Shown here one piece after another: positions 3,333 through 61,323 of a stretch of DNA of 64,000 bases. Made by a program: the position numbers and the translations under genes. The notes beneath the pieces were generated by a model that did not search any database, was not told the DNA's origin, and saw only the letters and a program-made list of their open reading frames with translations. This DNA is from Dehalococcoidia bacterium (GTDB lineage Bacteria > Chloroflexota > Dehalococcoidia > Lucifugimonadales > UBA3495), in NCBI GenBank assembly GCA_965237745.1, contig OZ250156.1, positions 3,553,426 through 3,617,425 on the forward strand, read 5' to 3'. Each line of letters starts with the position of its first letter. Within the stretch, counting starts at the first letter, position 1.

Positions 3333-3378
3333 GTTCTGCACACGCCCGGCCGTTCGCGGCCAACACGGTTAGACGCGG

Positions 3379-3413
3379 AGACGCCCCTCGCGATTGCGGG
3401 GGGCGTTTCTTTC
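3379..3413. terminator. Intrinsic terminator-like hairpin between convergent genes
   Basis: Stem ACGCCCC (3381-3387) pairs with GGGGCGT (3400-3406), 10-12 nt loop, followed by TTTCTTTC. It marks the switch from GC-rich to AT-richer DNA. Confidence 0.6.
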
Positions 3414-3456
3414 GTGGGTGGTTAGAACACTTTTCCAAGGACCCAAAAATAAGGTG

Positions 3457-19532: not shown

Positions 19533-20443
19533 CTAGTCGCCGCTGCGCCGGACGGCGTGGCCGCCGAACTGCTGTCTCAGGGCTGCCAGCATCCTGGCGC
19601 CCAGCGGGCCGTCCTGGCGGGAGCGGAATCGCTGCTGCAACGCCGCGGTGATGGCGGGTATGGGCACGGCCAGGTCCACGGACTCCTGGACGGTCCAACG
19701 ACCTTCACCGGAGTCCTCCACGAAGGCTTGCAGGCTTTCCAGGGCCGGATCCTCCTCCAGCGCTCTGGCCGCCAGCTCCAGCAGCCAGGAACGAACGACG
19801 CTGCCGTGGCGCCAGGTTTGGGCAACGGCGGCCAGATCCAGGTCGAATTCCTCTTTGGCGGCCAGCAGTTCAAATCCCTCGGCGTAAGACTGCATGAGAG
19901 CGTACTCGACGCCGTTATGCACCATCTTGACAAAGTGGCCGGCGCCACTGGGACCAAAGTGGGAGTAACCAACGTCCTCGCTGGGCGTTAAGGAGCGAAA
20001 GGCGGGTTCCATTCGCTTCACCGCATCTCCGGACCGCCCACCATCAGGCAGAACCCGTGAGCCAACCCCCAGATGCCGCCGCTGATTCCCACGTCTATGA
20101 ATTCTATGCCGCGTTCCGAGAGTTCGCGGCCGCGGCGCATTGAGTCCTTGTAGTTGGCGTTGCCTCCATCGAGAACGATGTCTCCGGGGGAGAGCAGGGG
20201 GACCACGGTGGTGATGGTGTCTTCGGTGGGTCGACCAATGGGGAGCATGACCCATATCGCACGGGGAGGAGACAGGCGGCCGACCATTTCCTCCAGCGAT
20301 CCAACGCCCTCGCTGCCGTGCTGAGAGCTGGCCAGCACGGCGTCACCGTCCAGATCGTAGGTCACAACGCGGTGTCCTCCGGACGTCAGCCGCCGCGCCA
20401 TGTTTGCACCCATACGCCCCAAGCCGACCAGTCCCAGATCCAA
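19533..20443 (-). CDS. gnd: 6-phosphogluconate dehydrogenase (short, YqeC-type) with an apparent 1-nt frameshift near 20030
   Basis: TTG start at 20443 after AGGAGG. N-terminal LVGLGRMGANM Rossmann motif in one frame (to ...CLMVGGPEMR*), and the C-terminal GDAVKRMEPAF...HFVKMVHNGVEYA continues in the -1 frame. Total length is 911 nt, one short of a multiple of 3. Confidence 0.85.
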
Positions 20444-26708: not shown

Positions 26709-27857
26709 CTAGCGAGTGAGTTCCTCGCGCAGCCGCCGGATTACGATTTCGACTTCCGCTTCGGTCAGATTGAGAGGGTCCACCGCCAGTTCTTGGGGGC
26801 CGCCCAACTGGTGCAGGTATATCTGGGGGCTGCCACTCTCCATAGCGGCAGCGACGGTGTCCCTCGCAGGGCCGCGCCACTCGTCGCCGAAGCGAATCAC
26901 GGCGTGGGGGATGAGGTAGTTGGTGCTGTCATGTTCCAACGTAATCCGCAGACCAGGAATCTCCACCAACGCATCCACGACCTGCTGCATAAAGCCGCGG
27001 TACACGGCCATCTCCGCCGCCTCGTCCTCATCGACAAAGGCTGCCAGCGATGATACCAGTCCAATGACCTCCTCCTTGGCGACCTTCATGCCTCTCCCCA
27101 AGAACTGGGCCGGATTGGCCTGGGCAGCAGCGGCCTCGATGAGGTCGGCGCGGCCGGCGAGGATGCCGCTTCCCTGGGGACCGCGCACACCCTTGCCACC
27201 GCTGTAGACCACCATGTCGGCCCCGGCGCGGAGAAAGCGGTAGAGGTTGGCTCGCGGAGGCAACATTGAGGCCGCGTCCACGATTACCGGCACGTCGTGG
27301 GCGTGGGCGATCTCGCAGACTCGCTCCAAGGGGAGGACTTTGTTACTGGCGAAGGGGGCGCACAGGTAGGCGACAGCAGCCGTTCGCTCGTTGATCGCGC
27401 CCTCAAGCTGCCACGGGTGGGCGAACAGGTAGTCGCCAAACTCGACCATTCTGGCTCCCGCCACGCGATAGGCCTGATCATAGGGGAAGCGGTGCATGGT
27501 GTGAATGACGATCTCGTTTTTCAGGCCATCGGTGTTGGGCAATTGCCGCATCTTCACGGGGTCATTGCCTGCGATGCAGGCAGCGGCCTGGAGCACCAGA
27601 CCACCGGCAGCCCCGCTACACACGAACCCGGCCTCGGCTCCGGTGAGGCGGGCAATCTCCTTGCCCGCAGCCCGATTGAGGTCGTCGATGTTGACCATCA
27701 CTCGGGCGGTCTTGGACATCAGGTCGAGGGTCTCGGGCCGCGTGCGGGTACCGCCAAGACGGGTGATGGAGCCGGCGGCATTGATGATGGGCGACACTCC
27801 CAGACGCCGATAGATCGATTCCGTTTCAGAATCAAGGCCGGTCGTGATGTTGGCCAC
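26709..27857 (-). CDS. SelA-family PLP-dependent enzyme (DgaE-like; lacks the SelA N-terminal domain)
   Basis: YSGGKGVRGPQGSGIL matches the SelA-family Lys/GPQ motif. At 382 aa it is shorter than bona fide SelA. Confidence 0.7.
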   Translation of the reverse strand: MANITTGLDSETESIYRRLGVSPIINAAGSITRLGGTRTRPETLDLMSKTARVMVNIDDLNRAAGKEIARLTGAEAGFVCSGAAGGLVLQAAACIAGNDPVKMRQLPNTDGLKNEIVIHTMHRFPYDQAYRVAGARMVEFGDYLFAHPWQLEGAINERTAAVAYLCAPFASNKVLPLERVCEIAHAHDVPVIVDAASMLPPRANLYRFLRAGADMVVYSGGKGVRGPQGSGILAGRADLIEAAAAQANPAQFLGRGMKVAKEEVIGLVSSLAAFVDEDEAAEMAVYRGFMQQVVDALVEIPGLRITLEHDSTNYLIPHAVIRFGDEWRGPARDTVAAAMESGSPQIYLHQLGGPQELAVDPLNLTEAEVEIVIRRLREELTR

Positions 27858-28033
27858 GCTTTCCTCCCGTCAGTGTCCCGAGCTTCGCAGGTCTGACTTC
27901 CTCATTTCCATCAGATTTTCACACAAACTCAAGCCTATTATATCAATTGCCATAGGCCAGTGTGGTAACATTTCTCTGGCTCTCAAAGACTTTCACATAA
28001 CCCTCACAATTGAGGGCTGAAGGTGCGCTACAA

Positions 28034-45961: not shown

Positions 45962-47368
45962 TGTCTCTACGGTGGCGAATCATGGGCTCGACGGTCCTTG
46001 TCGTCGTTCTCTCCGTCCTCATCAGCGTCGGTGTGGGCTATTACTCGACACAGTCCCGCTTGGGCGTGTTCGTGGATCGGATAGGAGAAAACGAGGCCAG
46101 CCAATTGGCTCGCAGCCTGAGCGGGGAGTATAGCGCCGCTGGTGGCTGGGAAACAGTGGACAGTTCACTGGCCCGGGCGGGATACATATATGGCGAGGTG
46201 TCGCATCGGGAAGGGTCTGAGGGCCGAGCAAGAGAATCAACCGAATCTCCCCACCACGATCGGGTAAGAATCGTTATTGCCGACACCGAAGGGCGCGTGG
46301 TGAGGGACAACCTGTCCATGCTGCCACCGAGTACCATGGCGCCCGACCTCGATGGGCATCGCGAAACGGTGTTCGATCTGACCACTGACCAGCCCGTCGG
46401 CCACGTCTATGTGGACGTAGATCATGAGTTCCTGTCAACCGAATCCCATGGGTTTCTGACCACCCTGATGTACATCACTCTTATTGCAGGAGCGCTGACG
46501 CTGATTTCCGCAATCCTGCTGGCCGCCTGGCTGTCCAGGCGCATCACCGCGCCTGTGACGGCGTTGACCGAGGCAACTCAGGCCATTGCCCAGGGAGGCA
46601 CGACCCAATTGCCGGTCAGGTCCTCGGATGAGTTGGGGCGGATGAGCGGGGCCTTCAACTAGATGACCTCCGCCCTGGAAACCCAGCGCGAGCTGCGCAG
46701 ACGGCTGATCAACGACGTCTCCCATGAGCTCAACACGCCGCTGAGCGTCATACAACTGGAGGCGGCGGGCCTGCGCGACGGGCTTGCAGACGCCCGAGGA
46801 CGCCTCCGACCATATCATCCAGGAAGTGGACAGGCTACGTGGCCTCGTTACGGACCTGGACTGGCTTGCGGAAACAGACCAGGGCGAGTTGAAACTCAAG
46901 CTGGAGCCAGCTTCGATTTACGAACTGGTCGCCAGAGAGGTTCAGCGGTGGCAGCCGCAATGCCAACCCCGACAAGTCGAATTGTCCCTTGAAGCTTCAA
47001 CTGACCCGCCCGAAATCAATCTGGACTGGGCGCGGGTGAGTCAAGCCTTGGGAAATATCCTGAGCAACGCCATTCTCCATACCGAGGCAGGTGGAAGCAT
47101 CGTTGTCACGGCGGTGTCGGAAAGCAACAGGGCTGCGGTGATCTCGATCACCGACGACGGGATTGGCATCAACGCCGCAGACCTCCCACACGTATTCGAC
47201 CGCTTTTACCGAACTGACCAGTCCCGTATGCGTGGCGTAGAGGGAACGGGGCGGGGGTTGGCCATTGCCCGGGCTATTGTCGAAGCACACGGGGGTACGA
47301 TTTCGGTATCAAGTGGCGGCCCTGGAGAGGGGGCCACTTTCTCTATCCGCTTTCCTCTGAAAAAATGA
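45958..47368 (+). pseudogene. HAMP-containing sensor histidine kinase, disrupted
   Basis: In-frame TAG 46660-46662 inside the HAMP (GAFN*MTSAL). H-box NDVSHELNTPL. Frameshift near 46783. N/G boxes (LSNAILHT, DDGIGI, GTGRGLAIA) lie in the last piece. Confidence 0.85.
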
Positions 47369-47430
47369 GCACCACTGGCCTTGGCCAATACCCCCTCGGC
47401 TGGAACACCGACAACACAAAGGACAGGACA

Positions 47431-47934
47431 ATGAGTGCACTGGAACAGATTGAAGGGCGAGTGCGGACGGCGCTGGACGGATTTGGAATCGCAGACTGGG
47501 AGTGGATTGAAATCGATCCCCAGTACGGCGACACCGCAGACTTCTGCGAACATTACGGGTACGACCTGCCCCATTGTGCCAATACGATCATCGTGGCCAG
47601 CAAGCGCGGGTCGGCGGCGTACTGCGCAGGGATCGTGCGTGGGTGCGACCGTCTGGACGTGAACAAGCGAGTGCGCGGGCTAATGGGAGTGCCGCGGGCT
47701 TCGTTCGCCTCGGCGGAAGAGACCCGTGAGGTTACGGAGATGATAATCGGCGGAGTTACGGCACTGGCGCTGCCCCAGGGGTTGCCGATCTACGCTGACG
47801 TACGCCTATTGGAGATGGACTACATCATCCTCGGGGCGGGCAGCCGATCTGGCAAGTTGAAAATGCCGCCCCAAGAGCTGGAGAAACTGCCGGGCCTTGA
47901 ACTCATCGAGGGGTTGTCGATTTCGGCGGAGTGA
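47431..47934 (+). CDS. YbaK/ProX-type aminoacyl-tRNA deacylase domain protein
   Basis: YbaK-like core (ANTIIVASKRG...GGVTALALP...ILGAGSRSGKL). Confidence 0.8.
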   Translation: MSALEQIEGRVRTALDGFGIADWEWIEIDPQYGDTADFCEHYGYDLPHCANTIIVASKRGSAAYCAGIVRGCDRLDVNKRVRGLMGVPRASFASAEETREVTEMIIGGVTALALPQGLPIYADVRLLEMDYIILGAGSRSGKLKMPPQELEKLPGLELIEGLSISAE

Positions 47935-48111
47935 CAGCGGCGGGTTCGGGACAGCGTTCCATTCCATCTGATTCAGTTTCCGGAAAGCAGATGAATCTTG
48001 CGGGACACATCGGCCACCGGTGCGCCCTACTCTGCCTGGCGCAGGCCAGGGGCCACCCGCTCAGGCGTATACCGGGACCTCTTCGTGGCACAATCCTGCT
48101 GTTCCGCAAGT

Positions 48112-48163
48112 TTAGATCATCTCACAAAACTCGCGTTCCGGCTGGATCAGAATCCAGGGAGCA
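48112..48163. repeat. 52-nt dispersed repeat, copy B
   Basis: TTAGATCATCTCACAAAACTCGC...CTGGATCAGAATCCAGGGAGCA. See 35582-35633. Confidence 0.85.
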
Positions 48164-48660
48164 GGTCGCCTACGGATAGTGAGACGGATGTACAGCGTAG
48201 ATGTATATCTGCGGGTTCGCAGGGCGGTGATGGTGGAGGGAACGTGATTAACGACAATTAGCACTGCAGTCGCAAGATTAGGTAGACGCCGTTTATAGTG
48301 GCATCGTCTGGCCTGAATATACTGAAAACACACACAGTGCCCTGTCGCGGCTTGTGTCCGTCAGGTGGCGTCGGTAGGATAATCGAGGGTTGCACTTAGT
48401 TTGTACTGTGGTGTCTGGGTGACATCAACGCCCGTTGCCCACCCACACTACGAGCCTCGTGTGCGTGCCACCCGATCGACCTTCCCCGTAGTGGTTTGTG
48501 AAGTACGCGAAATCCTCGGCCCAAAGGCCTTGTGCTTACGCTGGATCGGTCGAGGGAACGCGCGCTGTCCACGAGCGGGCGTACAGTTCACGGAAGCCTT
48601 GCAGCGATGCCCACTGTTGGCCGCGCACGGCGCCGCATTTGCGACGAAAGGTGCCTGATC

Positions 48661-50322
48661 ATGACTTATGAGTTCGATCTCGGTTCATACAGTCGGCCGA
48701 TAACGACATCATCGCCGGAGGCCCAGCTTTGGTTTGATCGGGGTCTGCTATGGACCTACGGATTTAACCACGAAGAGGCCGTCTTCTGCTTCAAGCAGGC
48801 GGCCGAAGCCGATCCGAAGTGTGCCATGGCGTATTGGGGTATCGCGTACGCTATGGGTCCCAACTATAACAAGCCGTGGGAGGCGTTTGATGAGGCGGAA
48901 ACATCGAAAACGCTGTCCGAGGCCTTTGACGCGACAATGCGCGCCACGGCGCTAGCAGGCAACTGTACCCAGGTGGAAAGGGACTTGATTGAAGGGCTTC
49001 ACCAGCGATATCAGTCTGCGGGACAGCCGCAAAACCTGTCCGCCTGGGTCGATGACTTTGCTGCCGCGATGCGAGCCGTCTACCTCAACCATCGAGAGGA
49101 TGCAGATATCTCCGCGCTCTTTGCGGAAGCCATGATGAACCGCACCCCCTGGGCGCTCTGGGATCTGGAGTCCGGAGAAGCGGCAGAGGGCGCCGACACC
49201 GAGGAAGTCAGGCAGGTGCTCGAACGAGGCATGGAACGTCGCGCGCACATGGGCGCCCCGCCGCATCCGGGAATGCTGCACATGTACATCCACCTGATGG
49301 AAATGTCGCCCTTCCCGGAACAAGCTCTGCTCGCCTGCGAACAGTTGCGAGGCTTGGTGCCGGATTCTGGCCATCTGCAGCACATGGCGACGCATATTGA
49401 CGTGTTGTGCGGCGATTATCTGAGCGTGGTGAATTGGAACGAAGCAGCGATCCGGGCCGACCGCCGGTATCTGGCAGCCAGAGGACCGTTCAACTTCTAT
49501 ACGCTGTACCGCTGCCATGACTATCACTTCAAGGCGTACGGGGCGATGTTCCTGGGCCAGTACCAATCGGCCATCGAGGCGGCCGAGGAGTTGATCGCTG
49601 CCCTCCCCGAGGATCTATTGAGCGTGCAGTCGCCGCCCATGGCAGACTGGCTGGAAGGGCTGGTGCCTATCAAACAGCATGTATTTGTGCGGTTCGGGAA
49701 ATGGCAGGAAATCCTTGCGCAGGAACTACCGGCAAATCCCCATTTGTACTGCGTTACGAGCGCCACCATGCGGTATGCAAGGGCCATCGCCTTTGCAACG
49801 CTCGGGCATTCGAAGTCGGCGGTGGCTGAGGCGGAGGCTTTCGAGAGGGACTTTGAGCGTGTGCCGGACAGCCGGTATTTGTTTAACAATTCCTGCCGCG
49901 ATATCCTGACGGTCGCGCGGGAGATGATGCTCGGCGAGCTCGATTACCGGCAGGGAGACATCGAATCGGGCTTCGCACATTTGCGGCAGGCAGTCGCCTT
50001 TGACGACAACCTGCCCTATGACGAGCCTTGGGGCTGGATGCAGCCTGCCCGGCACGCCCTCGGCGCCCTCCTGCTGGAACAGGGACGTGTGGAGGAAGCC
50101 CTCGCCGAGTATAGGGCGGACCTCGGCTTCGACTCAGTGCTCAAACGGTCAAGTCAGCACCCCGACAATGTCTGGAGTCTGAGCGGCTATCACGAATGCT
50201 TGGAGCGAACGGGCCAGCACGAATTAGCGGCGGTCACGAAGCAGCGGCTCGCCCTAGCCCGGGCGCGCGCCGACGTGCCGGTGCAGTCGTCCTGCTTTTG
50301 TCGGCTTCAGGGTGCAGGCTAA
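48661..50322 (+). CDS. TPR-repeat protein of unknown function
   Basis: ATG at 48661. N-terminal ...FDRGLLWTYGFNHEEAVFCFKQAAEADPKCAMAYWGIAYA TPR-like helices, and the ORF is long and uninterrupted. Confidence 0.6.
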   Translation: MTYEFDLGSYSRPITTSSPEAQLWFDRGLLWTYGFNHEEAVFCFKQAAEADPKCAMAYWGIAYAMGPNYNKPWEAFDEAETSKTLSEAFDATMRATALAGNCTQVERDLIEGLHQRYQSAGQPQNLSAWVDDFAAAMRAVYLNHREDADISALFAEAMMNRTPWALWDLESGEAAEGADTEEVRQVLERGMERRAHMGAPPHPGMLHMYIHLMEMSPFPEQALLACEQLRGLVPDSGHLQHMATHIDVLCGDYLSVVNWNEAAIRADRRYLAARGPFNFYTLYRCHDYHFKAYGAMFLGQYQSAIEAAEELIAALPEDLLSVQSPPMADWLEGLVPIKQHVFVRFGKWQEILAQELPANPHLYCVTSATMRYARAIAFATLGHSKSAVAEAEAFERDFERVPDSRYLFNNSCRDILTVAREMMLGELDYRQGDIESGFAHLRQAVAFDDNLPYDEPWGWMQPARHALGALLLEQGRVEEALAEYRADLGFDSVLKRSSQHPDNVWSLSGYHECLERTGQHELAAVTKQRLALARARADVPVQSSCFCRLQGAG

Positions 50323-50660
50323 GAGCGGCGCAATATGAGCCGCCAGACTTACCGACCGTGCGGTTCAGCCTCTGATTCCTGCGAGTTGTTCCGGGAACGC
50401 GTCGTAGAGGAAATCAAGGCGGGTCGGGTCAAAGGGTGTCGCCGAGGGGATGCAGAGACTCGACCCCTGTGGCCGTATCACATTTTTTGTTAGCCCGACC
50501 GCGCTGGGACTGGTACTGCAACCGCAGATGACCGGCTTTAGGGCCAGAGGGACTTGACGACCGTCGAACTCGGCTGTAGTTCGTGGGTCTACGATGGATG
50601 AAACCAGGCTGATTGACGGGCCAAAAGTGCTATCCGGGTGAATGTGCGGCTGTAGTACTA

Positions 50661-51888
50661 AACTAAAGCCAAGGTGAAATGCGCAGAAGCATGGGGTAAA
50701 TTGGTGGTGAACTTGGATGGCTTGTCTTGGATTCAGGTAGGGGTTGGCGATGGGCGTGAGAGATATAGGCCTGATTCTTCGACAGTGGGAGATGGACGCC
50801 AGGGGATTGCACCGGCGGCTCATTCTGGCTCCGACGCCCCGGGAGCGGGAGCGTTGGCACGCCCTCTGGCTCTTGGCCCAAGGCTGGACTGCGGCAGCCA
50901 CGGCCGAGGCTCTGGGACGGGACCCGCACACCATTGGCCGGTGGGCCTCCGCCTTCGGAGAGGGCGGACCGGAGGCCTTGATGTTCGAGCAGACCGGGGG
51001 TTCCCCCCCGCCCTCGGCGAGGGGCAGAAGGCGGAGTTGAAGACCGCGGTACAGGAGCCGCCTGCCATGTCTGGCATCGAACTGGCCAACTGGAACTGGA
51101 AGGCGGTGCGGCGATTTGTTGCCGACTGGTTCGGCGTCAGGCTATGCCGCAGCAGTTCTCTGAACTACCTGCACCGGTTGGGATTTGCTTTCAAGCGGCC
51201 CAAGAAACGTCTGCTCAAGGCGAATGAGGCCAAGCGCGAGGCGTTCGTGGCGGAGTACGCCGCCCTGTGGGAGGAGGCGAAGCGGTCCGGAGGCAAGATA
51301 TTCTTTGCCGACGAGGCCCACTTCCGTGCTGACGCCGAACTGCGGGGCAAGTGGGTTCTGAGGGGAGAACCGGCGTTGGTGGACTCGACCAGCCCGCGGT
51401 ATGGCGAGAAGGCCAGCTACTACTCGGCGGTGTGCTTGGAGACCGGGGAGGTGGAGTGGATGGAACTGGAGGGTAACAGCAACGCCGGGACATCGTCGGC
51501 CTTCCTGCGGCAACTTGCGGAGAGGCACGCCGGGCAATTGAACGTGATCTGGGACAACGCGCCGGCGCACCGTGGCGAGGCTGTGCGTGAGTATCTGCGG
51601 ACGCCTGGGCTGCGGCTGGTGAACCTGCCGGGCTACAGCCCGGACTTCAACGCGGATGAGGCCATCTGGGGCTGAGCGAGGGAAGAGGCGACAGGTAACC
51701 TGTGCCTCGGAACCAGTGCCAAGGTGCAGGAGAGGGTCGGCAGCTTCCTCGCCGGGCTGGCCAGCCGGAAGGATGAAGTGAAACGGCGTTGCCGGACAGT
51801 CCTGCAATCAAAGGCCGAGACCCTCTGGCGAGACATCCAGGCCCCTTCCCAGCCCACGGCAAATGCACATCCCACCTTGGCTTTGGTT
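50661..51888 (+). mobile_element. IS630-family insertion sequence flanked by TA duplications
   Basis: Terminal inverted repeats AACTAAAGCCAAGGTG (50661-) and CACCTTGGCTTTGGTT (-51888). TA at 50659-50660 and at 51889-51890. Confidence 0.9.
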
Positions 51889-51891
51889 TAG
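50744..51891 (+). pseudogene. IS630-family DDE transposase (frame change at a C7 run plus an in-frame TGA)
   Basis: The HTH part (to ...FEQTGGSPP) continues in the -1 frame after CCCCCCC at 51003-51009 (ALGEGQKAELK...). DDE region FFADEAHF...WDNAPAHRG...NPDFNADEAIWG, then TGA 51673-51675 where related transposases as I recall them have Trp. The frame then stays open to a TAG at 51889-51891 that uses the flanking TA. Confidence 0.85.
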
Positions 51892-51981
51892 GAGGAAATG
51901 TCTCACTTGGGGCGTCCTTTCTCCGCTGGGGTCAGGCGTCCATTCTACCTGCTGCCTGTCCCTTTCCTCTCGCCCAGGGTG

Positions 51982-52632
51982 TCAGCGGTCTCGGGAGCTT
52001 ACATGCAGAAGCAGGTACCTGAACCTGGTGTATCCCGTCCCCGCAGGGTCGGAATAATCTCTCCACCGCGCCCTGTAGCGGCCTCCGATTTCTATCAGCC
52101 TCTCCCGGCCGCACACTGTCCCGGCGCCGGCTTGGGGACTCCAGGCAAGGGTGCCGGTGATTTCACGGTCTTCATGAAGGACGAACTCGACGTCGTTGGT
52201 GTCAGGTTTCGTGGGAATGTTCCAGTACAGATGGTCGTTGGTGAGGAGGATGGCGTACCCGTCGTTCGCCCTCCCGCCCCTGATGATTCCCTCCAACCTG
52301 GCGATGTCCAGGCAGAAGTCATACCTCCCAGTGTCCTGGGCCGACTGGTCCCGGAGCCGAAATTCTTCGTCCCCGTGCAGAACTGCCGCCGTTCTGGTCA
52401 GGTACTTGAGTTCAATGGCGGTGCCGGAGTCCGGCAGCCAGACGTCCACGTACCGCCTGTCGGGCCCCTGGATAAGGTTGCCGACCTCCTGCCTTATCCG
52501 AACCGACGGGTGGTCCTGCTGGATCTGCCAGGAAAGGGCGTGCTTGAAGTCTGACTCCGAATGGAATACTGGCCTGGATTGGGTCACCGTTTCCATGGCC
52601 TCGTTCATGTCCAGTGTTGATCTGGTGGCCAT
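51982..52632 (-). CDS. Hypothetical protein with PD-(D/E)xK-like nuclease motif
   Basis: RRYVDVWLPDSGTAIELKY fits a D...ExK core. 216 aa with a plausible RBS. Confidence 0.45.
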   Translation of the reverse strand: MATRSTLDMNEAMETVTQSRPVFHSESDFKHALSWQIQQDHPSVRIRQEVGNLIQGPDRRYVDVWLPDSGTAIELKYLTRTAAVLHGDEEFRLRDQSAQDTGRYDFCLDIARLEGIIRGGRANDGYAILLTNDHLYWNIPTKPDTNDVEFVLHEDREITGTLAWSPQAGAGTVCGRERLIEIGGRYRARWRDYSDPAGTGYTRFRYLLLHVSSRDR

Positions 52633-52723
52633 ACGTTGGTGTCCGCCTTTGTTGAGTCAGGCATGGCGTTATTTCCTGTTGTCTCCGTTGATGGTAACGG
52701 GCCGGAACAGGCTCCCTGGGTCA

Positions 52724-53476
52724 TCAGGCACCTGTTTTCGCGCCCAACGTCCGATCCTCTTCCGGCAGGGGACCCCTCGACCAGCACTCCCCGCACATCG
52801 CGAGGATGCTGCTCTCGTACAGGATGTGGAAGTGGTCTTCCTCCGGTCGCAACTCCGTTTCGCACTGCACGCACCCGGGCGGGTTCCCGGCAGCTTCGAC
52901 CGCCACCCGGTACGGGCAGTCCAGAACGCTGGGGGGACACTCGTCCCATCTCGCTCCGCTCCCGTGCCACCGGTTTCCGTTAAATTCGTCCCGGAACACG
53001 TCGGGGTCGGAGTCAAGGAAGTCGATCAGTTCCTGCCCGGTCGTCCACCTGGGGTGTCCCTCGATTGTAGCCAGGGGGTCCACGTCAATTCTGGCCGCCA
53101 AGGGTCCAAGGATGTCTCCGCCGGATATTTCGCCGTTTAACTCCATCTCCCTGAGCCCGATGTTATCGTGGTGCGTTTCGGTCATCTCGAACGCAACCGA
53201 CCTATTTATGATGGCGTCTATCTGTCCCATCTCGGACAGTTCTGGGTCGTCAGGTGGACTTGTAACCTTGTAGCGGCGGCTGGCGTCGATGCTCATTCCC
53301 ACTGGTCTGAGGCCTGGGGTGGTGGTGGCCGGAGTCATCTGGGACAGATAGTCGAACGTGTCAGGGGCTCCGCCCCCACCGAAGTCGCCCCCTGACTTCG
53401 CCCGGTTTACCTTCCTGCTCTGACCCTTCTTGGTCTTGCGCTTGTTCTTGCTGACCGGCATTCGCGTCCTTTTCAC
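52724..53476 (-). CDS. Hypothetical protein, basic N-terminus and Cys-rich (zinc-ribbon-like) C-terminus
   Basis: KNKRKTKKGQSRK tail and C-terminal CP...CP...CVQC...CGEC cysteine pairs. An alternative ATG at 53461 has an AAAGGA RBS. Confidence 0.45.
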   Translation of the reverse strand: MKRTRMPVSKNKRKTKKGQSRKVNRAKSGGDFGGGGAPDTFDYLSQMTPATTTPGLRPVGMSIDASRRYKVTSPPDDPELSEMGQIDAIINRSVAFEMTETHHDNIGLREMELNGEISGGDILGPLAARIDVDPLATIEGHPRWTTGQELIDFLDSDPDVFRDEFNGNRWHGSGARWDECPPSVLDCPYRVAVEAAGNPPGCVQCETELRPEEDHFHILYESSILAMCGECWSRGPLPEEDRTLGAKTGA

Positions 53477-53578
53477 GCTCCTTATGGGTTGGCGCTGATG
53501 TTACTCTGGACCTGTCGGGTTGGTCTGTAGGGAGGTGTCAGTGGGGCGTTCTTCCCATCTCATTGATTTGCAGAGTAC

Positions 53579-53729
53579 TTGTATTACAACGACAGTTTGC
53601 GGAAAAGGCCGGCTGGCGCTGCGTGTCTGACTCCGAGCCAGGTACTGTGGGAGGGTTGCCGCAGGTGGCCGCTAAATTCAATTCCACCTCAAGAATCACG
53701 CCGTTGGATTAACCGTCGTTGTAATACTA
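53579..53729. repeat. Inverted-repeat-bounded element, copy 2
   Basis: GTATTACAACGAC at 53581-53593 and GTCGTTGTAATAC at 53715-53727. Core-to-core length is 147 bp, identical to copy 1, while the interior is essentially unrelated. Confidence 0.9.
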
Positions 53730-53811
53730 AGCCACAGTCCGGGCTGAACCCCATTTTGCCGGCTGCACAAGGGCGGGCAACAGTCGAAAAGCCCGCACCG
53801 TTGAGGTCGTC

Positions 53812-54273
53812 CTACAGACGCTCCAGTAACTTTGCAATCTGATCGGTGTGGTTCATGTCGGGTTCCCACTCGCAGATCACACTGTGTTCGTCGATGACAA
53901 CTGCGGGCCTTTTCCCGTCTGACGGGTCTTTGACGTACCTCTCTCCATCGAGAGTGGACATGCCTAGCTCAATGCCTACTCGTCGATCAGGGTCGTTCAG
54001 GACCGCGAACGGAAGCTGCTCTTTCTCGACCCACTGGCGTGCAGCATCCAAGCTTCCGTCATGGATTCCGAACAGCACGACGTTCTTCTCGGTGAACTCG
54101 GCAGCATGCTCTCGGTACCCAAGAGCCATGCGGGTTCAGTTACCACCGCCCGGACTCGTGAAGAAGTACAGCAGGACCTTTTGTCCGCGAAGACTGCTAA
54201 GGGATATCGTCTGTCCATCGCTGGACTGAAGTGTGAAATCGGAAATCGTCTTCCCGATGTAAGTTTCCATCAT
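53812..54273 (-). CDS. BCP-type peroxiredoxin (AhpC/TSA family) with in-frame UGA at the peroxidatic-Cys position; candidate selenoprotein
   Basis: The 45-codon 5' piece (MMETYIGKT...VLLYFFTSPGGGN) and track ORF 53812-54129 share one frame and are separated by TGA (54138-54136). The UGA aligns with Cys of the E. coli Bcp motif [12 protein letters not shown]. Confidence 0.75.
54104..54131 (-). promoter_or_regulatory. SECIS-like hairpin immediately 3' of the in-frame UGA
   Basis: mRNA GCAUG-G-CUCU UGGGUACCG AGAG CAUGC. The stem has 9 bp plus up to 3 further pairs, one bulged G, and an apical GU 18-19 nt after the UGA. Confidence 0.45.
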
Positions 54274-54388
54274 TGCCGTCCTTTCCGGTGAGACTTAATA
54301 GAACCGACGCACGCATGGCAGAACCGTTCCCCATGCAGTTGCTGGGCTGCACGGAGTCTAGGCGTTTCTCACCGCCGATGCACGCCTA

Positions 54389-54675
54389 AACCAAAGCCAA
54401 GGTGAAATGCGCAGAAACATAGGGTAAATTGAAGGAGGGACAGGGTTAGCTTTTGCGAGTGTCCGAGAGGGGTTGGTGATGGGTGTGCGGGAGATGGAGC
54501 GATTCCTCCAACAGTGGCAGATGGATGCCAGGGATTTGCGCCGGCGGATGATTTGGTCGCCGACGTCCCGGGAGCGGGAACGGTGGTACGCCCTGCTGCT
54601 GCTGGCCCAAGGATGGCCGGGTTCGGCGGTGGCCGGGGCACTGGAAAGGGACCCACACACCATTGGCCGATGGGG
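54389..54675 (+). mobile_element. Truncated IS630-family copy (left end + HTH-coding part only)
   Basis: TA then AACCAAAGCCAAGGTGAAATGCGCAGAA (nearly identical to 50661-). It encodes MGVREMERFLQQWQMDARDLRRR...HTIGRW, and similarity stops abruptly near 54675. Confidence 0.85.
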
Positions 54676-55032
54676 GTCAACCATACGGAGAGACAACTTT
54701 TTAGCTACTCGTTCACGCTCCCAGCCGATTGCTGATGAACTTGACAGGGTTGTTACGCTGAACAGGCCAGAACTGCGAAGCGCACAAGAACTGCGAGTCC
54801 AAGCGCAGCGCAGCGAATGCTGGTTCAGCAACCAACGAGGCCTTGGCGTTGCCGGGCCTTTTCTTTTGGGAATTATATCGGATTCTACCTACAGACCGGT
54901 TCCGCTCGTTTCCGCAGAACATGTAGCTCACCGCCAGACGGAGGAGGCTTACCCAGACGGCAAGATGTTTGACGCCTTGCCGTAATCGAGGTCTGTCCTT
55001 TGACCACCAACTGCGAAAGCAAACGGAACCGT

Positions 55033-55900
55033 CTAACCGCCTTCCGGACGTTCCGGGAGCTTCTGTTCAACAATGTAGACGTGCGGTGGAAGCGTCTTCC
55101 CACTCTTCTGCAAGGCGTCTTCGAGCTTTGCCCGATCCGGCACGTAGACCTCGGCCCGGTTTTCGAACACGTTGATGCCGGACGCCAGCTGAAACCCCAG
55201 TCCCGCTACTATCCGGCCAGCTTCCCGCTGGGCTCGTTTCAATTCCTGAATGGTCGCGTCGACGGTTCTGACTTCGATAATGTCCGCCAACGGGCCGTCC
55301 TGGACGTACTTGGCGATTGTCTCTTCACCGTTCTTGATGAACGCCACCACGACGCGGTACTCCGGTTCGTGCTGAATCCAGAAACCTCCGAGGATGTCGG
55401 CCTCGTTGGATTCGAGAGTTGCCCCCAACTTCCCGATAGGTCCCTGCAGCGTTAGACGTTTGATTGCCTCTGATAATTCAACGTCAAAATCTGCGGCGTA
55501 AATCTGGGCATCTTGAGCCAGAGCCGGAGAAACACCTTCCGGTATTTCCTCTGGGGCGAGTGTGTTAATCGGGGTTGGCCGAGGTCGGTGGGAGGTGCCC
55601 CACATTTATGGTGCCTTCGGCCTCTCTGGCGTCGGACACCTCCAGATTCGTGGGCGTCGGACTTACGCCATTCCTCGGCGCGGTTGTCGGAGTGCGAAAC
55701 GCTGGGAGCGTCCGGCTCGCTGTTGGTTCCGGCGTGGGAGTGAGCGTCGCCGTTGGTACAGACGTATACGTGGGATAAAGCGTATATGTCGGGGCCGGGG
55801 TATACGTGGGAAATGGTTCAGGCGTCGCTGGGCTGCAGGCCAGAGTGATGAGTGAGAGGACGCCCATCACGCTCAAAACGGCCCAAGTTGAGTAGTTCAT
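55033..55900 (-). CDS. Lipoprotein with Thr/Pro-rich linker; apparent frameshift at a 4-nt G run of the coding strand (C run 55598-55601 on the plus strand)
   Basis: Signal/lipobox VLSLITLACS, a TP-rich linker, then the globular part (track ORF 55033-55605) in the adjacent frame. The globular part faintly resembles alpha-lytic-protease prodomains, which is uncertain. Confidence 0.5.
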
Positions 55901-56294
55901 CTTGTTCGTTAAGTCCACAAGCAACGTGGTCGCTGCACAGCATGGCGCTGTAGCCAGTCCCTCGCACAGATGCTTCTCATTTTAGGACGACCCGGCATAC
56001 CCGCTCCGCAAACAGACGTTTTTGCACACTCAGTCTACTGGGTGCTGACCAGCCCCGTTACTCCTAGGCTCGTGGGTAAAATACGATATAAATCCCTTTC
56101 TTTTTGCCACCGGCCCAGGGCCGGACAAGGGCCCAAGGCAGCGCCCCGGCAGGATTTGATGACAGAAGCCCGTTGAGAATCCCGTGACCCCCGTAGGACA
56201 ATAGATGTAGGGCCGAGTTGCGTACGACCGACGGCCGGCACCAAGCCGGTGCAACCCGGCCCTGCGTTACGTCTGAGAGACCAGGAGGGGAAGG

Positions 56295-56641
56295 ATGCAG
56301 AACGGGACGGGCATGCGGGCCGCGATCTACGTCAGGGAACCTGTCCAAGCGATGAGGAACCGCATCGACGCCGTGAAGCAGGCGGAGGAAGCGGCGGGAT
56401 ACTGCCGGGAGGCGGGGATAGAGATCGTCGCTCGGTACCAAGACGAGGAGGCGAACGGGAGGCCTTCCAGCGCATGATGGAAGACGCCACGGGGGACCCC
56501 AAGCCCTTCGAGCGTGTGGTCGTCTCCAGGCTGGTGCATTTCGCGGTTCAGCTCGACGAGTCGATACTGGCACAGGAGCGCCTGAAGACCAACGGGGTGA
56601 GACTCCTGTCAGTCCACGAGAAACGGGAGGTCAGGAACTGA
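56295..56641 (+). pseudogene. Serine recombinase (resolvase/invertase) catalytic-domain remnant
   Basis: MRAAIYVRE... lacks the catalytic Ser (expected YVRVS). A frameshift lies between ...YQDEEANG and EAFQRMMED...ERVVVSRL...NGVRLLSVHE. No DNA-binding domain follows. Confidence 0.55.
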
Positions 56642-56861
56642 CGGAGAGCGCGCCAGGAACGCTCCCAGGGGCAGGAGGCCCGGCGCAAGCCGGGTCTCTT
56701 ACGTGAACAGCAACAGCGCGCACGCCCCGACCAGCCGCCAAGCGAACCGACAGACGCCGGCGCAGGGTTGACGAAGTAACGGACTGCTGGGGGCGGGAAG
56801 ACCAAATGCGGGGCTGCCAGGGGCCGGGAGAGCGGCGCCCGACGACGCACAGGGAGGGAGA

Positions 56862-57221
56862 ATGCAAGTCCACTTCCGGGATTTCACCGCGGCGCCAGGA
56901 ACTAGGGGCTGCATCTGCGCCGTATGTAACCTGACCGGGGTGATGGAGAAAACGCTGCCCCAGATGCCCCGGAGCCTGGATGAAATGCCCGCGGCCGTCA
57001 CGGTGACGCTGATGTCCCCCGAGGGCATAGCGGCCTGGAGACCGGTGCTGGGGATGTTCGACGGGCTGAACGAGCGCAGCAGGAAACTGACGGTGGCCAT
57101 GCTGGACCAGCTCGACCCGGCGAACCGGTCGGTGACGGAGTTCATGCTGGACGGGGAGCTGCGGGACGCGCTGGCATCCATGCTCAGCGAGGCCGACGAC
57201 GGCAGGGTTGTAGCGACGTAA
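56862..57221 (+). CDS. Hypothetical protein (119 aa)
   Basis: GGAGGGAG RBS before the ATG and a strong intrinsic terminator 55 nt after the stop. No recognisable motif. Confidence 0.45.
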   Translation: MQVHFRDFTAAPGTRGCICAVCNLTGVMEKTLPQMPRSLDEMPAAVTVTLMSPEGIAAWRPVLGMFDGLNERSRKLTVAMLDQLDPANRSVTEFMLDGELRDALASMLSEADDGRVVAT

Positions 57222-57280
57222 TCCGGGATCGCCAGGACTGCGGGCCGCCAACGTGAGCTCCGCGGGGCAACGTGGGGTAA

Positions 57281-57313
57281 GAGGCCCGGCTTGCGCCGGG
57301 CCTCCCTTTTTTT
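57281..57313 (+). terminator. Rho-independent terminator
   Basis: GAGGCCCGGC-TTGC-GCCGGGCCTC followed by CCTTTTTTT. Confidence 0.75.
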
Positions 57314-57489
57314 CCTGACCGATCCCAAGTGCGGACGGGCAGTGCCCGGTGCCGCGCCAGTTTGATGACAGCGGGCGGTTGCAACTCCGAGGGACCCTAA
57401 GGGAGAATGGATTCGGAGCTTGGTTGCGATTGACGAACAATATCCGGCGACGACGGCGGCGCAGCCAAGCCACCAGGACGATTGCAAAG

Positions 57490-58627
57490 TCAGGTAACGC
57501 GCCCATAGAGGCTGGCGATGGTCTGGATGGGTCGGAAGGCACAGCTTTTGGCTCGCAGGGGCATGGACATCCGGGAGGGGAATCCTCCCTCCAGGCGCAG
57601 GGCGTTCAGCCCGGTGTTCACCAGGGTGGCGAATACCTCCCCCAACCCCGGACGCCGCAGCGTGTGGACGTCCTCATCCCAACTGCGGTCCTTCACGTGG
57701 TGCAGGCTGTTCTCAACACTCCAGTGCTGGCGGAACAATCGAAGCAGTTCCTTCGGTCCGCACCGCCGGGAACTCAGGCTGGTCAGCAGATACCAGCGCT
57801 CCCGGCCCACCTCCCCAGTGGCTATATCCACCCTTTCCTTCTCCACCATGGCCCCCTGCCTTGCCCAAGGAAACCCCAGTTCATCCCGGACGTAGCCGGC
57901 CAGCAGGTCATCGGTCCAGATCCGCCGCCTCTCGATCACACCCGCTTTTTTTCCAGGGTCTCCGCCTGTGGCTCCCCCAGTTCCTCTGGGGCAAACCCGT
58001 CGGTCAGCGCCGCCAGCACCGTCGGCTGGTTTCCCTTGACCCGCACCAGATAGTCCCGTCCGTGGTCGACTATGGCCTGGCACAGGTCCCGCTCCGCATA
58101 CAGGGCGTCCATGGTCAGCAGCCGCAGGCCGGGATAGTCCTCGAACAGCCGGCCAGTTGCTCCCGCAACACCCCGGGTTCGTAACGCTTCTCCGACGCCG
58201 GCCACTGGGCCAGGCACAGCTTCAGGTCATGGGCCAGCACGTTCACCATCACCAGGGGATTGCCTAGGCCATCCTCCGACTGCTTGGCCCACTTGCCGTC
58301 CACCGAGGCGTCCAACTCCTGGTTCGCCACCACGCGGGCCACCCAGCCGGTCAGGGCCCCCTGCAACTGCTCACAGGGCACCCCAGCCAGGGTGCGGGAA
58401 ATGGTGGTCGCGTGGGGCGGATCGTCCCTGAGAAAGCCCAACGGCTCTTTCAGTGCCGGCCAGTGCATCCTGGCGAACAACGCGATGTGGGCCATAGTGG
58501 TCTGGCCGCAGACCAAGCCCAGCAGGGTCAGACGCAGTATCGCCTGAAAGGGATGGCGCACTCCCCTGGCCCTCCGAGGGTCCGGCACCTGCTCCAAGCA
58601 ATGGAATAGAGATTCCTCCGCACCCAT
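57490..58627 (-). pseudogene. ISAs1-family (H-repeat-associated) transposase with two frameshifts
   Basis: FHCLEQVPDPRRARGVRHP...SVDGKWA.. (58115-58627), ..LTMDALYAERDLCQAIVDHGRDYLVRVKGNQ (57936-58217), ..WSVENSLHHVKDRSWDED (57490-58083), in three frames. Confidence 0.8.
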
Positions 58628-58975
58628 ATCCACACACTCCCATCTCTCGTCTCCCTCCCCTTGTAATCCCGCTTGCCCAACTTTGCAATCGTCCTGGCCA
58701 AGCCACAGCGCATCAAGACACCAATAAGGGATAGCAACTCTGAAAATCGGCACCGACCAAGCCAGCGTGCGTGTAAAAGAATGGCCGTTAACCAGCAACC
58801 GGGACACGTCGAGCAGACAGACCCAACTGGAGATGCAGCGAAGCAGCGTGAAGAGCGGACCGTAACCGCCCCTCTATCTCCAAGAGAGTGTGGCCGTCAG
58901 GACGGCGCCGTCGGCGCAACAGAAATCAGCCACGACCGTCTGCAGGGAAACCCATCGAGTGAGGCAGACCACAGC

Positions 58976-59959
58976 ATGAATAAACACGAGCAGGCTCGAG
59001 CCGAGATACTAAGGGAAGCCGGATACATGCCTCCCGGCAGGTCGAGAGGGAGAACGAAGAGTTCCATAAAGGCCGACGAGTACTGGCCTGCACCGCCACC
59101 GGCTAACCTGCTCGTGCAACCAGTGGGAGATTGCCTGATCTGGACGGGTCAGCTAAACGGAGATGGGTACGGCACCAGCAACTTCCCGAAGGACTTGCGG
59201 TTGGCCCACATTCAGGCATACGCCCAGTCGAGAAAAACAAGGGCGAACCCGGGGCGCTCAATTTGCCACTTGTGTCACAGACCATACTGCATCCAGCCCT
59301 CGCACCTGTACGAGGGAGACAACAAGACAAACTCCGACGACCGCAAGCTGAGGTCGGGCAAAGGCTCCATGTCACTCGTTTTCCATAAACACGATGAAGT
59401 GATGAACGCCGCGAAATATCGCTGGCCCAGCCCTTCGCCGAACAATGAGAGCCTACTGGACCCTGATGCAGTCGAAGTACAACACGAATGCGAATACATC
59501 ATCCCGGCCGGGGACGTGGCTATCTGCTCCGTCTGCGAGCAACCGGAGGACCCGAATCTCCATCGGGACTCCGGCCCGAAGCGAATGCAACCCCCGGACA
59601 CGGACAAGAACGTCCACTCCATGGTCAAATTCGGCAAGGCCGTTGCTGAGATAGGCAACGGAGCAGTCCTTTGCTCCAACATGGAAGTGGAGCTCGACCT
59701 GCCGAAGAACCGGGCGGAGAGGCGAAGGAGGTTGCGGCAGACCAGGAAACAGCGTGCTTGGGATGGGCCGGTTCTGATACATCAGGGCGAAGGGATCGTG
59801 CGCGTCAACGACCCGCGGCCCATACACGTCAAGACGGCTGCGCCTTTCGTTGCCCCAAGCGACGGTCTGCTGGTGGTCATGGTCTCAGCCAGCCCCCTGG
59901 GGCGCAGTGAAGCAGAGTTACTGGAACGGCTTGCGCGACCGAGACCCCAAGCTGAGTGA
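58976..59959 (+). CDS. HNH endonuclease-domain protein (phage/homing-type HNH_3) with unknown C-terminal half
   Basis: CLIWTGQLNGDGYG...AHIQAY...ICHLCHRPYCIQPSHLYEGDNKTNSDD. Confidence 0.75.
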   Translation: MNKHEQARAEILREAGYMPPGRSRGRTKSSIKADEYWPAPPPANLLVQPVGDCLIWTGQLNGDGYGTSNFPKDLRLAHIQAYAQSRKTRANPGRSICHLCHRPYCIQPSHLYEGDNKTNSDDRKLRSGKGSMSLVFHKHDEVMNAAKYRWPSPSPNNESLLDPDAVEVQHECEYIIPAGDVAICSVCEQPEDPNLHRDSGPKRMQPPDTDKNVHSMVKFGKAVAEIGNGAVLCSNMEVELDLPKNRAERRRRLRQTRKQRAWDGPVLIHQGEGIVRVNDPRPIHVKTAAPFVAPSDGLLVVMVSASPLGRSEAELLERLARPRPQAE

Positions 59960-60207
59960 GGGGCACAGAGGGGAAAATCACCCAAACGCGTAGAAAGCGA
60001 AGAATCAGAAAAGACACCAGAGCCCGGCCAAGAGGGCCGGGACCGACTGGAGCCGTTCCAAGACGCAAGCGGATGCACAATTCCGCCGAGGGGTGTGCAG
60101 AGAACCAGACGAGAATCGGCGAAGGTAGGGGCAGATCAAGAGGCAAAAAAGTAGACACATACAGTAGAATCCCCGCCGGACATCAAAACGAACGGAGATG
60201 CCTCGGC

Positions 60208-61323
60208 ATGGCTAAACTGCTGCTACCAGGGATTCTCATAATCCTGCTCACCCTGGCCGCCTGCACGGAGCCGGCACCGACAGCTGTCGTAGCACCAACA
60301 ACGGCTTTAGCGCCCACTGAGACAGCCACGGCAGGCAACCAGGCTGGGCCGACCCCAGTTGCAGGGCCGACCGAAGAGCCAACATCAATGCCTACGAGGG
60401 CACCCACGAGCCCACCGGAGCCTACGGCGACAGTAGCACCTGCTCCGACGCCTGAGCCCGAGCCGACAACGACTGAGAAACCGTCAGCGACGGCAGCTCC
60501 AACCCCGATACCGGCAGCTACCGAAACGCCGGCACCGACACCCGAGCCCACCGCAACAGCCGAACCGACTCCAGAGCCTACACCGACTCCAACGGCAACA
60601 CCTGCACCGACGCGAGAGCAGGACGCAGCCATGTGGCGGGGTCTCGCAGTGGCGCCCGAGGACCGGTGCTCAGACTACGACCCGGACGACTACCACTACT
60701 CACCGTCAGTCGAGCTCAAGATCGTCGACGCCCAGGGCGGCATCTACGGGCCCTGCACGGGGACCTGGTTCGACAGCATCCGGGAAACGGACATCGAGCA
60801 CATCGTGGCCCGGTCGGAGGCCCACGACAGCGGTGTGTGCTCCGCCGACCCGGAAACGAAGGACCAGTTCGCCGCCGACCTGCTGAACCTCACGCTCGCA
60901 TCCCCTAGCGTCAACCGCCACCAAAAGGTGGACAAGGACGCGGCCGAGTGGCTTCCCGAGTTGAACCAGTGCTGGTACGTGGAACGCACCGTCCAGGTGC
61001 GCCGGGAATATGGGCTGACCATCGACCGCGCCGAAGCGGCCGCAATCGACGACGTCCTCGCCGGCTGCGAGTCGACCGAGATGGTCGTGTTGGCTAAGGG
61101 GACCGCACCGACCGGGACTGCCACGGCAACACCGGCTCCAACCGAAGTGCCTACCCCCGCCGGAGGCCCTGACGTGGACGCCTTAGCCCTTTACGACGAC
61201 AACGGCAACGGCCGGATAACCTGCGCAGAGGCCCGAGCTCACGGCATCGCGCCCGTCCGGCGCGGACACCCTGCTTACGAGTACATGCGCGACGCCGACG
61301 GCGACGGGGTGGTCTGCGAATAA
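60208..61323 (+). CDS. Secreted lipoprotein nuclease: Thr/Pro-rich linker + DUF1524 (His-Me finger) + Excalibur Ca-binding domain
   Basis: Lipobox LLTLAACT. About 130-aa PT-rich linker. DIEHIVARSEAHDSG...NLTLASPSVNRHQK...AAEWLP...CWYV. C-terminal DDNGNGRITCAEA...DADGDGVVCE. Confidence 0.8.
   Translation: MAKLLLPGILIILLTLAACTEPAPTAVVAPTTALAPTETATAGNQAGPTPVAGPTEEPTSMPTRAPTSPPEPTATVAPAPTPEPEPTTTEKPSATAAPTPIPAATETPAPTPEPTATAEPTPEPTPTPTATPAPTREQDAAMWRGLAVAPEDRCSDYDPDDYHYSPSVELKIVDAQGGIYGPCTGTWFDSIRETDIEHIVARSEAHDSGVCSADPETKDQFAADLLNLTLASPSVNRHQKVDKDAAEWLPELNQCWYVERTVQVRREYGLTIDRAEAAAIDDVLAGCESTEMVVLAKGTAPTGTATATPAPTEVPTPAGGPDVDALALYDDNGNGRITCAEARAHGIAPVRRGHPAYEYMRDADGDGVVCE

Follow-up and report, generated by a model that had tools for sequence, protein, structure and literature searches.

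A peroxiredoxin of the Pfam family PF00578 that carries selenocysteine (Sec) in the motif PxxxTxxU is known from Eubacterium acidaminophilum (Sohling et al. 2001, as cited in PMC13188914). In the marine selenoproteome of the Global Ocean Sampling survey, the group "Prx" (PF00578, TxxU) is among the most abundant, with 253 sequences, and is accompanied by several Prx-like families (PMC2398784). The described Prx-like and thioredoxin (Trx)-like selenoproteins include Prx-like 1-3, cd02970 with the motif UxxS, and Prx-SUH with the motif CxxU (PMC2398784, PMC13188914). Here, we describe a gene of this type in a 64-kb stretch of contig OZ250156.1 from a Dehalococcoidia bacterium, referred to below as the window. 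The genome to which the window belongs is of a sponge-symbiont-type Chloroflexota. The gene at 54273-53812 of the minus strand is very probably a genuine selenocysteine gene; its 153-residue product belongs to the AhpC/TSA (peroxiredoxin) superfamily and has a BCP/PrxQ-like fold.

The translation of 54273-53812 (-) is a single frame of 153 codons, followed by a TAG stop codon, with one internal stop. The product begins with MMETYIGK, has ...SPGGGN in front of the internal stop, and reads MMETYIGKTISDFTLQSSDGQTISLSSLRGQKVLLYFFTSPGGGN, stop, TRMALGYRE...AKLLERL, stop. The sole internal stop is the TGA at 54138-54136 (-), codon 46, which lies on the position of the peroxidatic Cys and is interpreted here as a selenocysteine codon. 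The list of open reading frames (ORFs) of the window contains only two pieces of the gene, 54136-54273 (45 amino acids) and 53812-54129 (105 amino acids). A preliminary description of this DNA had reported an in-frame TGA splitting a gene that starts at ATG 54273 and had proposed a candidate selenoprotein. The TGA is present in the sequence and the frame is otherwise open, and the selenocysteine reading is supported by the conservation of the UGA, selection on either side of it, constraint on a downstream hairpin, and Cys homologues. The start codon is ATG 54273 or the adjacent ATG 54270; copies of the gene that begin with IMETY have only the latter. A Shine-Dalgarno-like stretch, GGAAAGGA, can be read from the sequence at 54279-54286 (-), 5 nt upstream of ATG 54273, and may serve as a ribosome-binding site.

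For the Pfam search, a Cys was placed at codon 46 of the read-through product. The match to AhpC-TSA (PF00578) has an E-value of 4.9e-22 and 78.6 bits against a cut-off of 26; it covers residues 6-132 and therefore spans the TGA. In the phmmer alignment to the solved BCP 5enu_A, VLLYFFTSPGGGN-C-TRMALGYRE aligns ungapped, and codon 46 falls on the peroxidatic Cys (of TPGCT), exactly where the UGA had been placed previously by eye. The likeness to Bcp that was proposed together with this placement holds for the position of the Cys and for the fold. However, the protein is not a canonical Bcp, because the Pro at -7 and the Thr at -3 are replaced, a resolving Cys is missing, and the score is below the NCBIfam cut-off for Bcp. 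A Cys that could act as the resolving residue is found neither at +5 nor at another conserved position of the family. Sec is followed by T-R-M, and the five positions on either side of it contain no Cys, so that the protein does not have a UxxC or UxxU motif. The catalytic Arg is retained as R122 of (K/R)RPAVVID; it does not vary within the family and lines up with the Arg of ERSTFLID in 5enu. The AlphaFold2 model of the Cys homologue P0016 has a thioredoxin fold, with a predicted local distance difference test score (pLDDT) of 84.4 and a predicted template-modelling score of 0.83. The model is most similar to BCP/PrxQ (9a4d_B, 5enu, 3drn) and to the 1-Cys AhpE (1xvw), with template-modelling scores of 0.73-0.80; ResA-type thiol-disulfide oxidoreductases score only slightly lower. 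The description that fits the protein best is a divergent selenoprotein that is BCP/PrxQ-like and has the layout of the 1-Cys type; "Prx-like" is the safer name for it.

The UGA is conserved across the family. The genome scan, which covered one genome per species of the Genome Taxonomy Database (GTDB), identified 60 loci, often two to three per genome. All are from Dehalococcoidia/SAR202 metagenome-assembled genomes (MAGs), except for one from a Caldilineaceae MAG and one from a "Chloroflexota" MAG. All 57 intact copies, from 40-plus Dehalococcoidia genomes and one Caldilineaceae MAG, have TGA at codon 46 and no other stop or lesion. The case that close relatives have a Cys codon while the copy in the window carries additional lesions, which had been named as decisive against a selenoprotein, was thus not encountered. 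A read error in the TGA had also been considered, and the same TGA occurs in dozens of independent assemblies. It had been argued, in addition, that a change from Cys (TGY) to TGA requires a transversion; the argument is correct, but it has no weight beside the comparative evidence.

More distant relatives show the same pattern. A metagenome scan with a profile of divergent members found 27 further family genes of marine, deep-sea, and soil origin, with 57-81% identity to the family reference. TGA is present in all of these but three, which are Cys forms with the sequence GGNN-C-TRMGLGY. Among the intact family genes overall, TGA is present in 79 of 81, and TGC or TGT is found in L062 and L069. 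A Cys in the column of codon 46, in the same GGNN-C-TRMGLGY context, occurs in L062, L069, L093, P0013, and P0016. These Cys forms are genuine and constitute a separate, more distant branch. The protein search found 101 relatives, of which about 80 are 105-residue proteins that start from the Met two codons past the TGA, with identities ranging from 98% to 53%, whereas the others include N-terminal fragments ending in ...SPGGGN. The uniform 105-residue starts together with the ...SPGGGN fragments indicate that gene callers truncate the whole family alike. In the few full-length calls of 153 residues, column 46 is W, R, or C.

The segments on both sides of the UGA are under similar selection. 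In 54 distinct sequences from the sponge clade, codons 1-45 have a ratio of non-synonymous to synonymous polymorphism (pN/pS) of 0.208, and codons 47-153 have one of 0.182. The numbers of variable sites at the first, second, and third codon positions are 19/13/40 before the TGA and 40/31/85 after it, and the third position dominates on both sides. The equal pN/pS and the excess of third-position changes indicate that the 45 codons upstream of the TGA are translated and under selection. In addition, 14 columns upstream of the TGA are invariant in eight full-length relatives, which share 52-70% identity with the reference P0016.

A hairpin resembling a bacterial selenocysteine insertion sequence (SECIS) element is located at 54104-54131 (-), and is supported by folding, conservation, and synonymous constraint. 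Its core stem is formed by 54125-54119 (CUCUUGG) pairing with 54115-54109 (CCGAGAG), with an apical loop GUA at 54118-54116, and the lower stem GCAUG/CAUGC carries a bulged G. The hairpin begins 5 nt after the UGA, and the GUA loop starts 17 nt after it. The minimum free energy (MFE) is -22.3 kcal/mol, compared with -14.2 +/- 2.6 kcal/mol for dinucleotide shuffles (z = -3.1), and 2 of 200 shuffles fold as well. The consensus for bacterial SECIS elements has an apical loop of 3-9 nt, an upper stem of 4-16 bp, G[G|U] opening the loop at a distance of 16-37 nt from the UGA, and an MFE of at most -7.5 kcal/mol (PMC13188914). The hairpin agrees with this consensus on all four points, with its GUA loop, 7-bp stem (12 bp with the lower stem), distance of 17 nt, and -22.3 kcal/mol. 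The hairpin announced in the preliminary description thus folds as proposed and recurs in every intact homologue examined; the apical GU has the geometry expected of a SECIS element.

Across 28 divergent TGA-type genes, the sequence AUGGCUCUYGGGUACCGRGAG hardly varies. The structure predicted by RNAalifold, a 7-bp stem CUCUYGG/CCGRGAG with the GUA loop, is present in 28 of the 28. The changes in the stem all keep the pairing (U-A/U-G at one pair, C-G/U-G/U-A at another), and 98.5% of the stem cells are paired, in comparison with 32-56% when the partners are slid. The constraint extends to synonymous codons, which provide the stronger evidence for the RNA element. In 75 distinct TGA-type genes, Ala50 is encoded by GCU in 75, Gly52 by GGG in 74, and Tyr53 by UAC and Glu55 by GAG in 75 each, while His56 is encoded by CAU in 62 of 62. 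In contrast, all four synonymous codons occur at conserved Ala and Gly positions in other parts of the gene (Mann-Whitney p = 0.009 versus the hairpin codons). The two Cys-type genes with full DNA sequence have GGC-CUC-GGC-UAU/UAC in this region, and the hairpin is not kept. A single 914-bp Tara Oceans contig (L132, gene at 184-645, protein P0012) has CGA, encoding Arg, at the position of the Sec codon and an intact SECIS hairpin. Arg was rejected as a distinct form of the family because CGA is one transition away from TGA and occurs on a single contig; it is a point variant, an error, or a very recent inactivation.

Components of the machinery for selenocysteine decoding occur in carriers of the family. 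Two of the loci, L035 and L049, are from contigs of SAR202 bin87 (MPNC) and bin16 (MPMJ) of the Aplysina aerophoba study, and these copies are 91-95% identical. The numbers of SelA/SelB/SelD genes are 3/1/1 in bin87 and 1/1/1 in bin16 (PMC5649159, Table S4), and most of the sponge-symbiont bins contain both SelA and SelB (PMC5649159). The counts of COG1921 "SelA" in symbiont genomes may include DgaE-type paralogues, and SelB and SelD are the more specific markers of selenocysteine use. In the 51.8-kb marine contig Ga0302123_10000157 (L066), a tRNA-Sec gene is located about 800 bp downstream of a TGA-type family member; ARAGORN assigns it the anticodon UCA, and it matches Rfam RF01852 with 73.1 bits against a gathering score of 47. 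Together, the SelA, SelB, and SelD genes of bin16 and bin87 and the tRNA-Sec of the marine contig indicate that carriers of the family decode selenocysteine. The region 3001-4772 of the same contig is a redox cluster that contains the TGA-type Prx-like gene, MsrB (SelR domain) at 3637-4014, the tRNA-Sec at 4263-4356 (-), and a thioredoxin at 4440-4772 (-). This linkage of MsrB, thioredoxin, and tRNA-Sec was found in no other fetched locus.

Based on these observations, we propose that the UGA at codon 46 is decoded as selenocysteine and that the hairpin 3' of it acts as a bacterial SECIS during translation. The SECIS would recruit SelB-GTP-Sec-tRNA(Sec) to the ribosome, and Sec would be inserted in place of termination, presumably also in the organism from which the window originates. 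In the folded protein, Sec46 would take the peroxidatic position, at the N-terminal end of helix alpha2 and beside the retained Arg of RPAVVID. There, Sec46 would most likely attack peroxides and be converted to selenenic acid, which makes peroxide reduction the probable activity of the protein. Because the family has no conserved resolving Cys, Sec46 may be recycled by an external thiol reductant, for which thioredoxin is one candidate, as in 1-Cys peroxiredoxins.

Several observations weigh against this interpretation. The covariation test of the hairpin is not significant, as 151 of 500 shuffles reach the observed score and one pair shows a double change. The reason is that the stem hardly varies; with a near-invariant stem, the evidence from the RNA is one of conservation, not of compensatory change. 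Rfam contains no match to the hairpin, either in the whole window at gathering thresholds or in 53700-54400 at E-values up to 10. A match to sRNA ar45 within 53700-54400 was rejected, since it is terminator-like and at the level of chance, with 13.6 bits against a gathering score of 40. The 64-kb window does not contain a tRNA gene. Its only SelA-like ORF, 26712-27869 (-), encodes a 386-residue pyridoxal phosphate enzyme that reaches 41.6 bits against the NCBIfam selA cut-off of 267.9 and 215-220 bits with DgaE/selA_rel (TIGR01437). The ORF was therefore rejected as selA and assigned as a DgaE/selA_rel paralogue, which provides no evidence for selenocysteine machinery. Other points concern the activity as a peroxidase. 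The active site, FFTSPGGGN-U-T, has Thr instead of Pro at -7 and Gly instead of Thr at -3 and thus departs from PxxxT/SxxC(U); the Pro and Thr of PxxxTxxC are held to be essential for peroxiredoxin catalysis. Every NCBIfam cut-off is missed; the best score is that for Bcp (PRK09437), with 62.6 bits versus 140, and PrxQ gives 44.4 versus 260. The active-site loop of the P0016 model has low confidence, with a mean pLDDT of 57 for residues 41-50. The remaining points concern the expression of the copy in the window. A consensus scan of 53600-54500 identified neither a sigma-70-type promoter nor an intrinsic terminator, only 115 bp separate the start codon from an upstream end of an IS630-type insertion sequence (IS), and a miniature inverted-repeat transposable element (MITE) abuts the 3' flank. 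The copy also lacks about 38 bp of downstream sequence that most other copies have.

It is possible, but unlikely, that the family is a true selenocysteine family while the copy in the window is a silent relic, trimmed by the MITE and IS630 insertions and no longer expressed. The missing promoter consensus and the adjoining elements speak for this, as does the length of the segment shared with other genomes. In blastn of window positions 47001-61000 against the 60 homologous loci (L001-L060), similarity is limited to 53727-54388 (-), and the sequence on either side is unrelated. According to blastn and the junction alignments, this shared segment of 662 bp comprises the gene with 115 bp upstream and 85 bp downstream, whereas other genomes share units of 1-3.3 kb among themselves. 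The sharp edges of the segment are due to the adjoining MITE and IS630 end. However, the coding sequence, the SECIS, and the Shine-Dalgarno-like site are all intact and 99% identical to other copies, and the 115 bp upstream are the same as in most other copies.

A different possibility is that ribosomes terminate at the UGA and start again at AUG 54129, so that a 45-residue peptide and a 105-residue protein are made. Met49, two codons past the UGA, is invariant, and public annotation lists the 45- and 105-residue pieces. Nevertheless, we consider two products very unlikely. Met49 is just as well conserved in the stop-free Cys-type genes and is therefore a structural residue. In the model, the thioredoxin fold draws strands and helices from both pieces, and the split would coincide with the catalytic residue.

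The reading as a plain pseudogene, in which a nonsense mutation has disrupted a Cys-peroxiredoxin gene in the same way as the transposase genes nearby have degraded, is highly improbable. The gene does lie in IS-rich DNA with fragmented transposase ORFs, and the shortened downstream flank would fit a decaying locus. However, the TGA shared by all close intact copies extends to relatives of about 57% identity, no second lesion is present, the codons before and after the TGA are under equal purifying selection, and the hairpin is under synonymous constraint. The comparative data led to the rejection of the pseudogene, of a sequencing error, and of a reading of the codon with genetic code 4.

The weakest alternative is a genome-wide reassignment of UGA to Trp or Gly (genetic code 4 or 25), with residue 46 not being Sec; despite the W at column 46 in the public calls P0002, P0020, P0024, P0034, and P0035, it is improbable in the extreme, because the W of P0002, the one such call checked at the DNA level, stems from the use of code 4 for a TGA on short contigs, no housekeeping genes with conserved in-frame TGAs were seen in the window, and a Trp or Gly at the peroxidatic site leaves the Cys homologues and the conserved hairpin unexplained. 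Within the window, TGA ends 13 of 36 long ORFs, among them ones that we take, by eye and without a check against Pfam, to resemble transketolase and G6PD; its use as an ordinary stop in these ORFs argues against a genome-wide reassignment. A scan of the window for frames interrupted by a single TGA gave 164 candidates, of which none obviously joins the halves of a known gene, and their number matches the expectation for spurious long ORFs at 61% GC.

The selenocysteine gene is embedded in mobile DNA. The MITE-like element at its 3' side, 53581-53727, is 147 bp long, has 17-nt terminal inverted repeats, GTATTACAACGACAGTT and AACCGTCGTTGTAATAC, and abuts the 3' edge of the shared segment. Its terminal motif is also present at 1401-1417 of the window and once in L011, and it occurs twice in L001, facing outward around a 2.3-kb segment that holds the gene. 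Two IS630-type copies are present in the surroundings. Copy A, 50658-51892 (+), has HTH_33 and DDE_3 domains (Pfam), and its right terminal repeat ends with ...CTTTGGTT, followed by TA. Copy B, 54386-54982 (+), consists of a left end and the remnant of a helix-turn-helix region (HTH_23 in ORF 54428-54982) and borders the shared segment on its 5' side. Over 308 bp, the left end of copy B is 75% identical to that of copy A (blastn), and an inverted repeat was also found for both copies. The two copies have the same orientation and bracket a 2.5-kb segment, 51893-54385, in the manner of a composite transposon, and both junctions read ...TTGGTT/TA/GG, where the slashes mark the boundaries. The bracketed segment holds the selenoprotein gene, the MITE, and two ORFs, 51982-52632 (-) of 216 residues and 52724-53476 (-) of 250 residues, neither of which has a Pfam or NCBIfam match. 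An integron cassette was rejected as an explanation of the 662-bp segment, because inspection of its edges by eye revealed no junctions of the GTTRRRY/RYYYAAC type.

In other genomes, the neighbours of the gene include a Tn3-type transposase N-domain (DUF4158), an IS110 transposase, an AAA_30 helicase, and a DinB/mycothiol-S-transferase-like gene. The copies have 90-99% nucleotide identity across species-level genomes, are present two to three times per genome, and are always located within IS630-, MITE-, Tn3-, or IS110-type DNA. The Caldilineaceae MAG, whose class differs from that of the other carriers, contains the 662-bp segment in a copy of 97% nucleotide identity (L042, CBDCRV010000006.1); this copy is either a recent horizontal transfer in the sponge microbiome or a binning error. 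The multi-copy state, the level of identity, and the Caldilineaceae copy suggest that the gene may have been spread by mobile elements. More tentatively, and with considerable doubt, mobile elements might be spreading and amplifying a Sec-dependent antioxidant gene as portable cargo among Sec-competent sponge symbionts. The family might then be a distinct, Pro/Thr-less lineage of peroxiredoxin-like proteins, in which Sec perhaps makes the two residues unnecessary.

Elsewhere in the window, two ORFs point to further mobile or selfish DNA: ORF 58118-58873 (-) has a DDE_Tnp_1-associated (ISAs1-type) domain, and ORF 58667-59956 (+) has a weak match to the zinc-loop of His-Me finger homing endonucleases, with 25.5 bits, just under the cut-off of 27. 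The first approximately 100 residues of ORF 19536-20342 (-) are rich in Arg and His and look non-coding, whereas the rest presumably corresponds to the C-terminal half of 6-phosphogluconate dehydrogenase, which it resembles by eye. This suggests a frameshift or a pseudogene in a pentose-phosphate cluster.

The family bears on the annotation of selenoproteins. Public calls nearly always split its members into a 45-residue piece and a 105-residue "peroxiredoxin" or read the UGA as Trp. The NCBIfam selenoprotein models do not match the protein either, with 30 bits versus 300 for WAxxUGC_long and 22 versus 120 for SelL_rel_redox. The split calls and the lack of an NCBIfam selenoprotein model indicate that the family is systematically mis-annotated and absent from counts of the SAR202/Dehalococcoidia selenoproteome. 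The gene also provides evidence for selenocysteine in the redox defence of sponge-associated SAR202, and the reported enrichment of SelA and SelB in sponge symbionts fits with the use of selenocysteine by these bacteria. In enzymology, a family without the Pro and Thr could be used to test to what extent Sec makes up for a reduced active site. The principles of selenocysteine decoding are unchanged by the gene.

Canonical genes of the Sec-peroxiredoxin type were also found in the metagenomes. The contigs L090-L097 encode BCP-type proteins with the full P-x-x-x-T-x-x motif and TGA at the peroxidatic position, which follows FFPKAGTSG or FFPKADTPG and precedes T; these are ordinary Sec-peroxiredoxin genes.

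The family from the window shares with the canonical Sec-peroxiredoxins the Pfam family, Sec in place of the peroxidatic Cys, a bacterial SECIS within the coding sequence just downstream of the UGA, Cys homologues, and a common occurrence in marine metagenomes. It differs from canonical Sec-BCP in being only about 35-40% identical and in having T-S-P-G-G-G-N-U-T rather than P-x-x-x-T-x-x-U. Furthermore, unlike the canonical Sec-peroxiredoxins, it is without a resolving Cys at +5 and falls below all NCBIfam peroxiredoxin cut-offs. The nearest solved folds are those of BCP/PrxQ (E. coli Bcp; 5enu, 3drn) and AhpE (1xvw), with which the family has in common the peroxidatic position, the catalytic Arg, and a length of about 150-160 residues; the lack of a resolving Cys is shared with AhpE. 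Whereas BCP, PrxQ, and AhpE use Cys and keep the Pro and Thr, the family uses Sec, or Cys in a minority of members, in a Gly-rich loop. Like the Prx-like and Trx-like families with UxxC, UxxS, or CxxU motifs, it consists of thioredoxin-fold selenoproteins that are known mainly from metagenomes and whose function is uncharacterised; its motif U-T-R-M, in contrast, lacks a partner Cys or Ser at both +3 and -3. Sec-peroxiredoxins are already known, and the gene in the window is another of that type, possibly one that is contained within the "Prx" group of earlier surveys. The only unusual aspects are its mobile, multi-copy context and its non-canonical active site.

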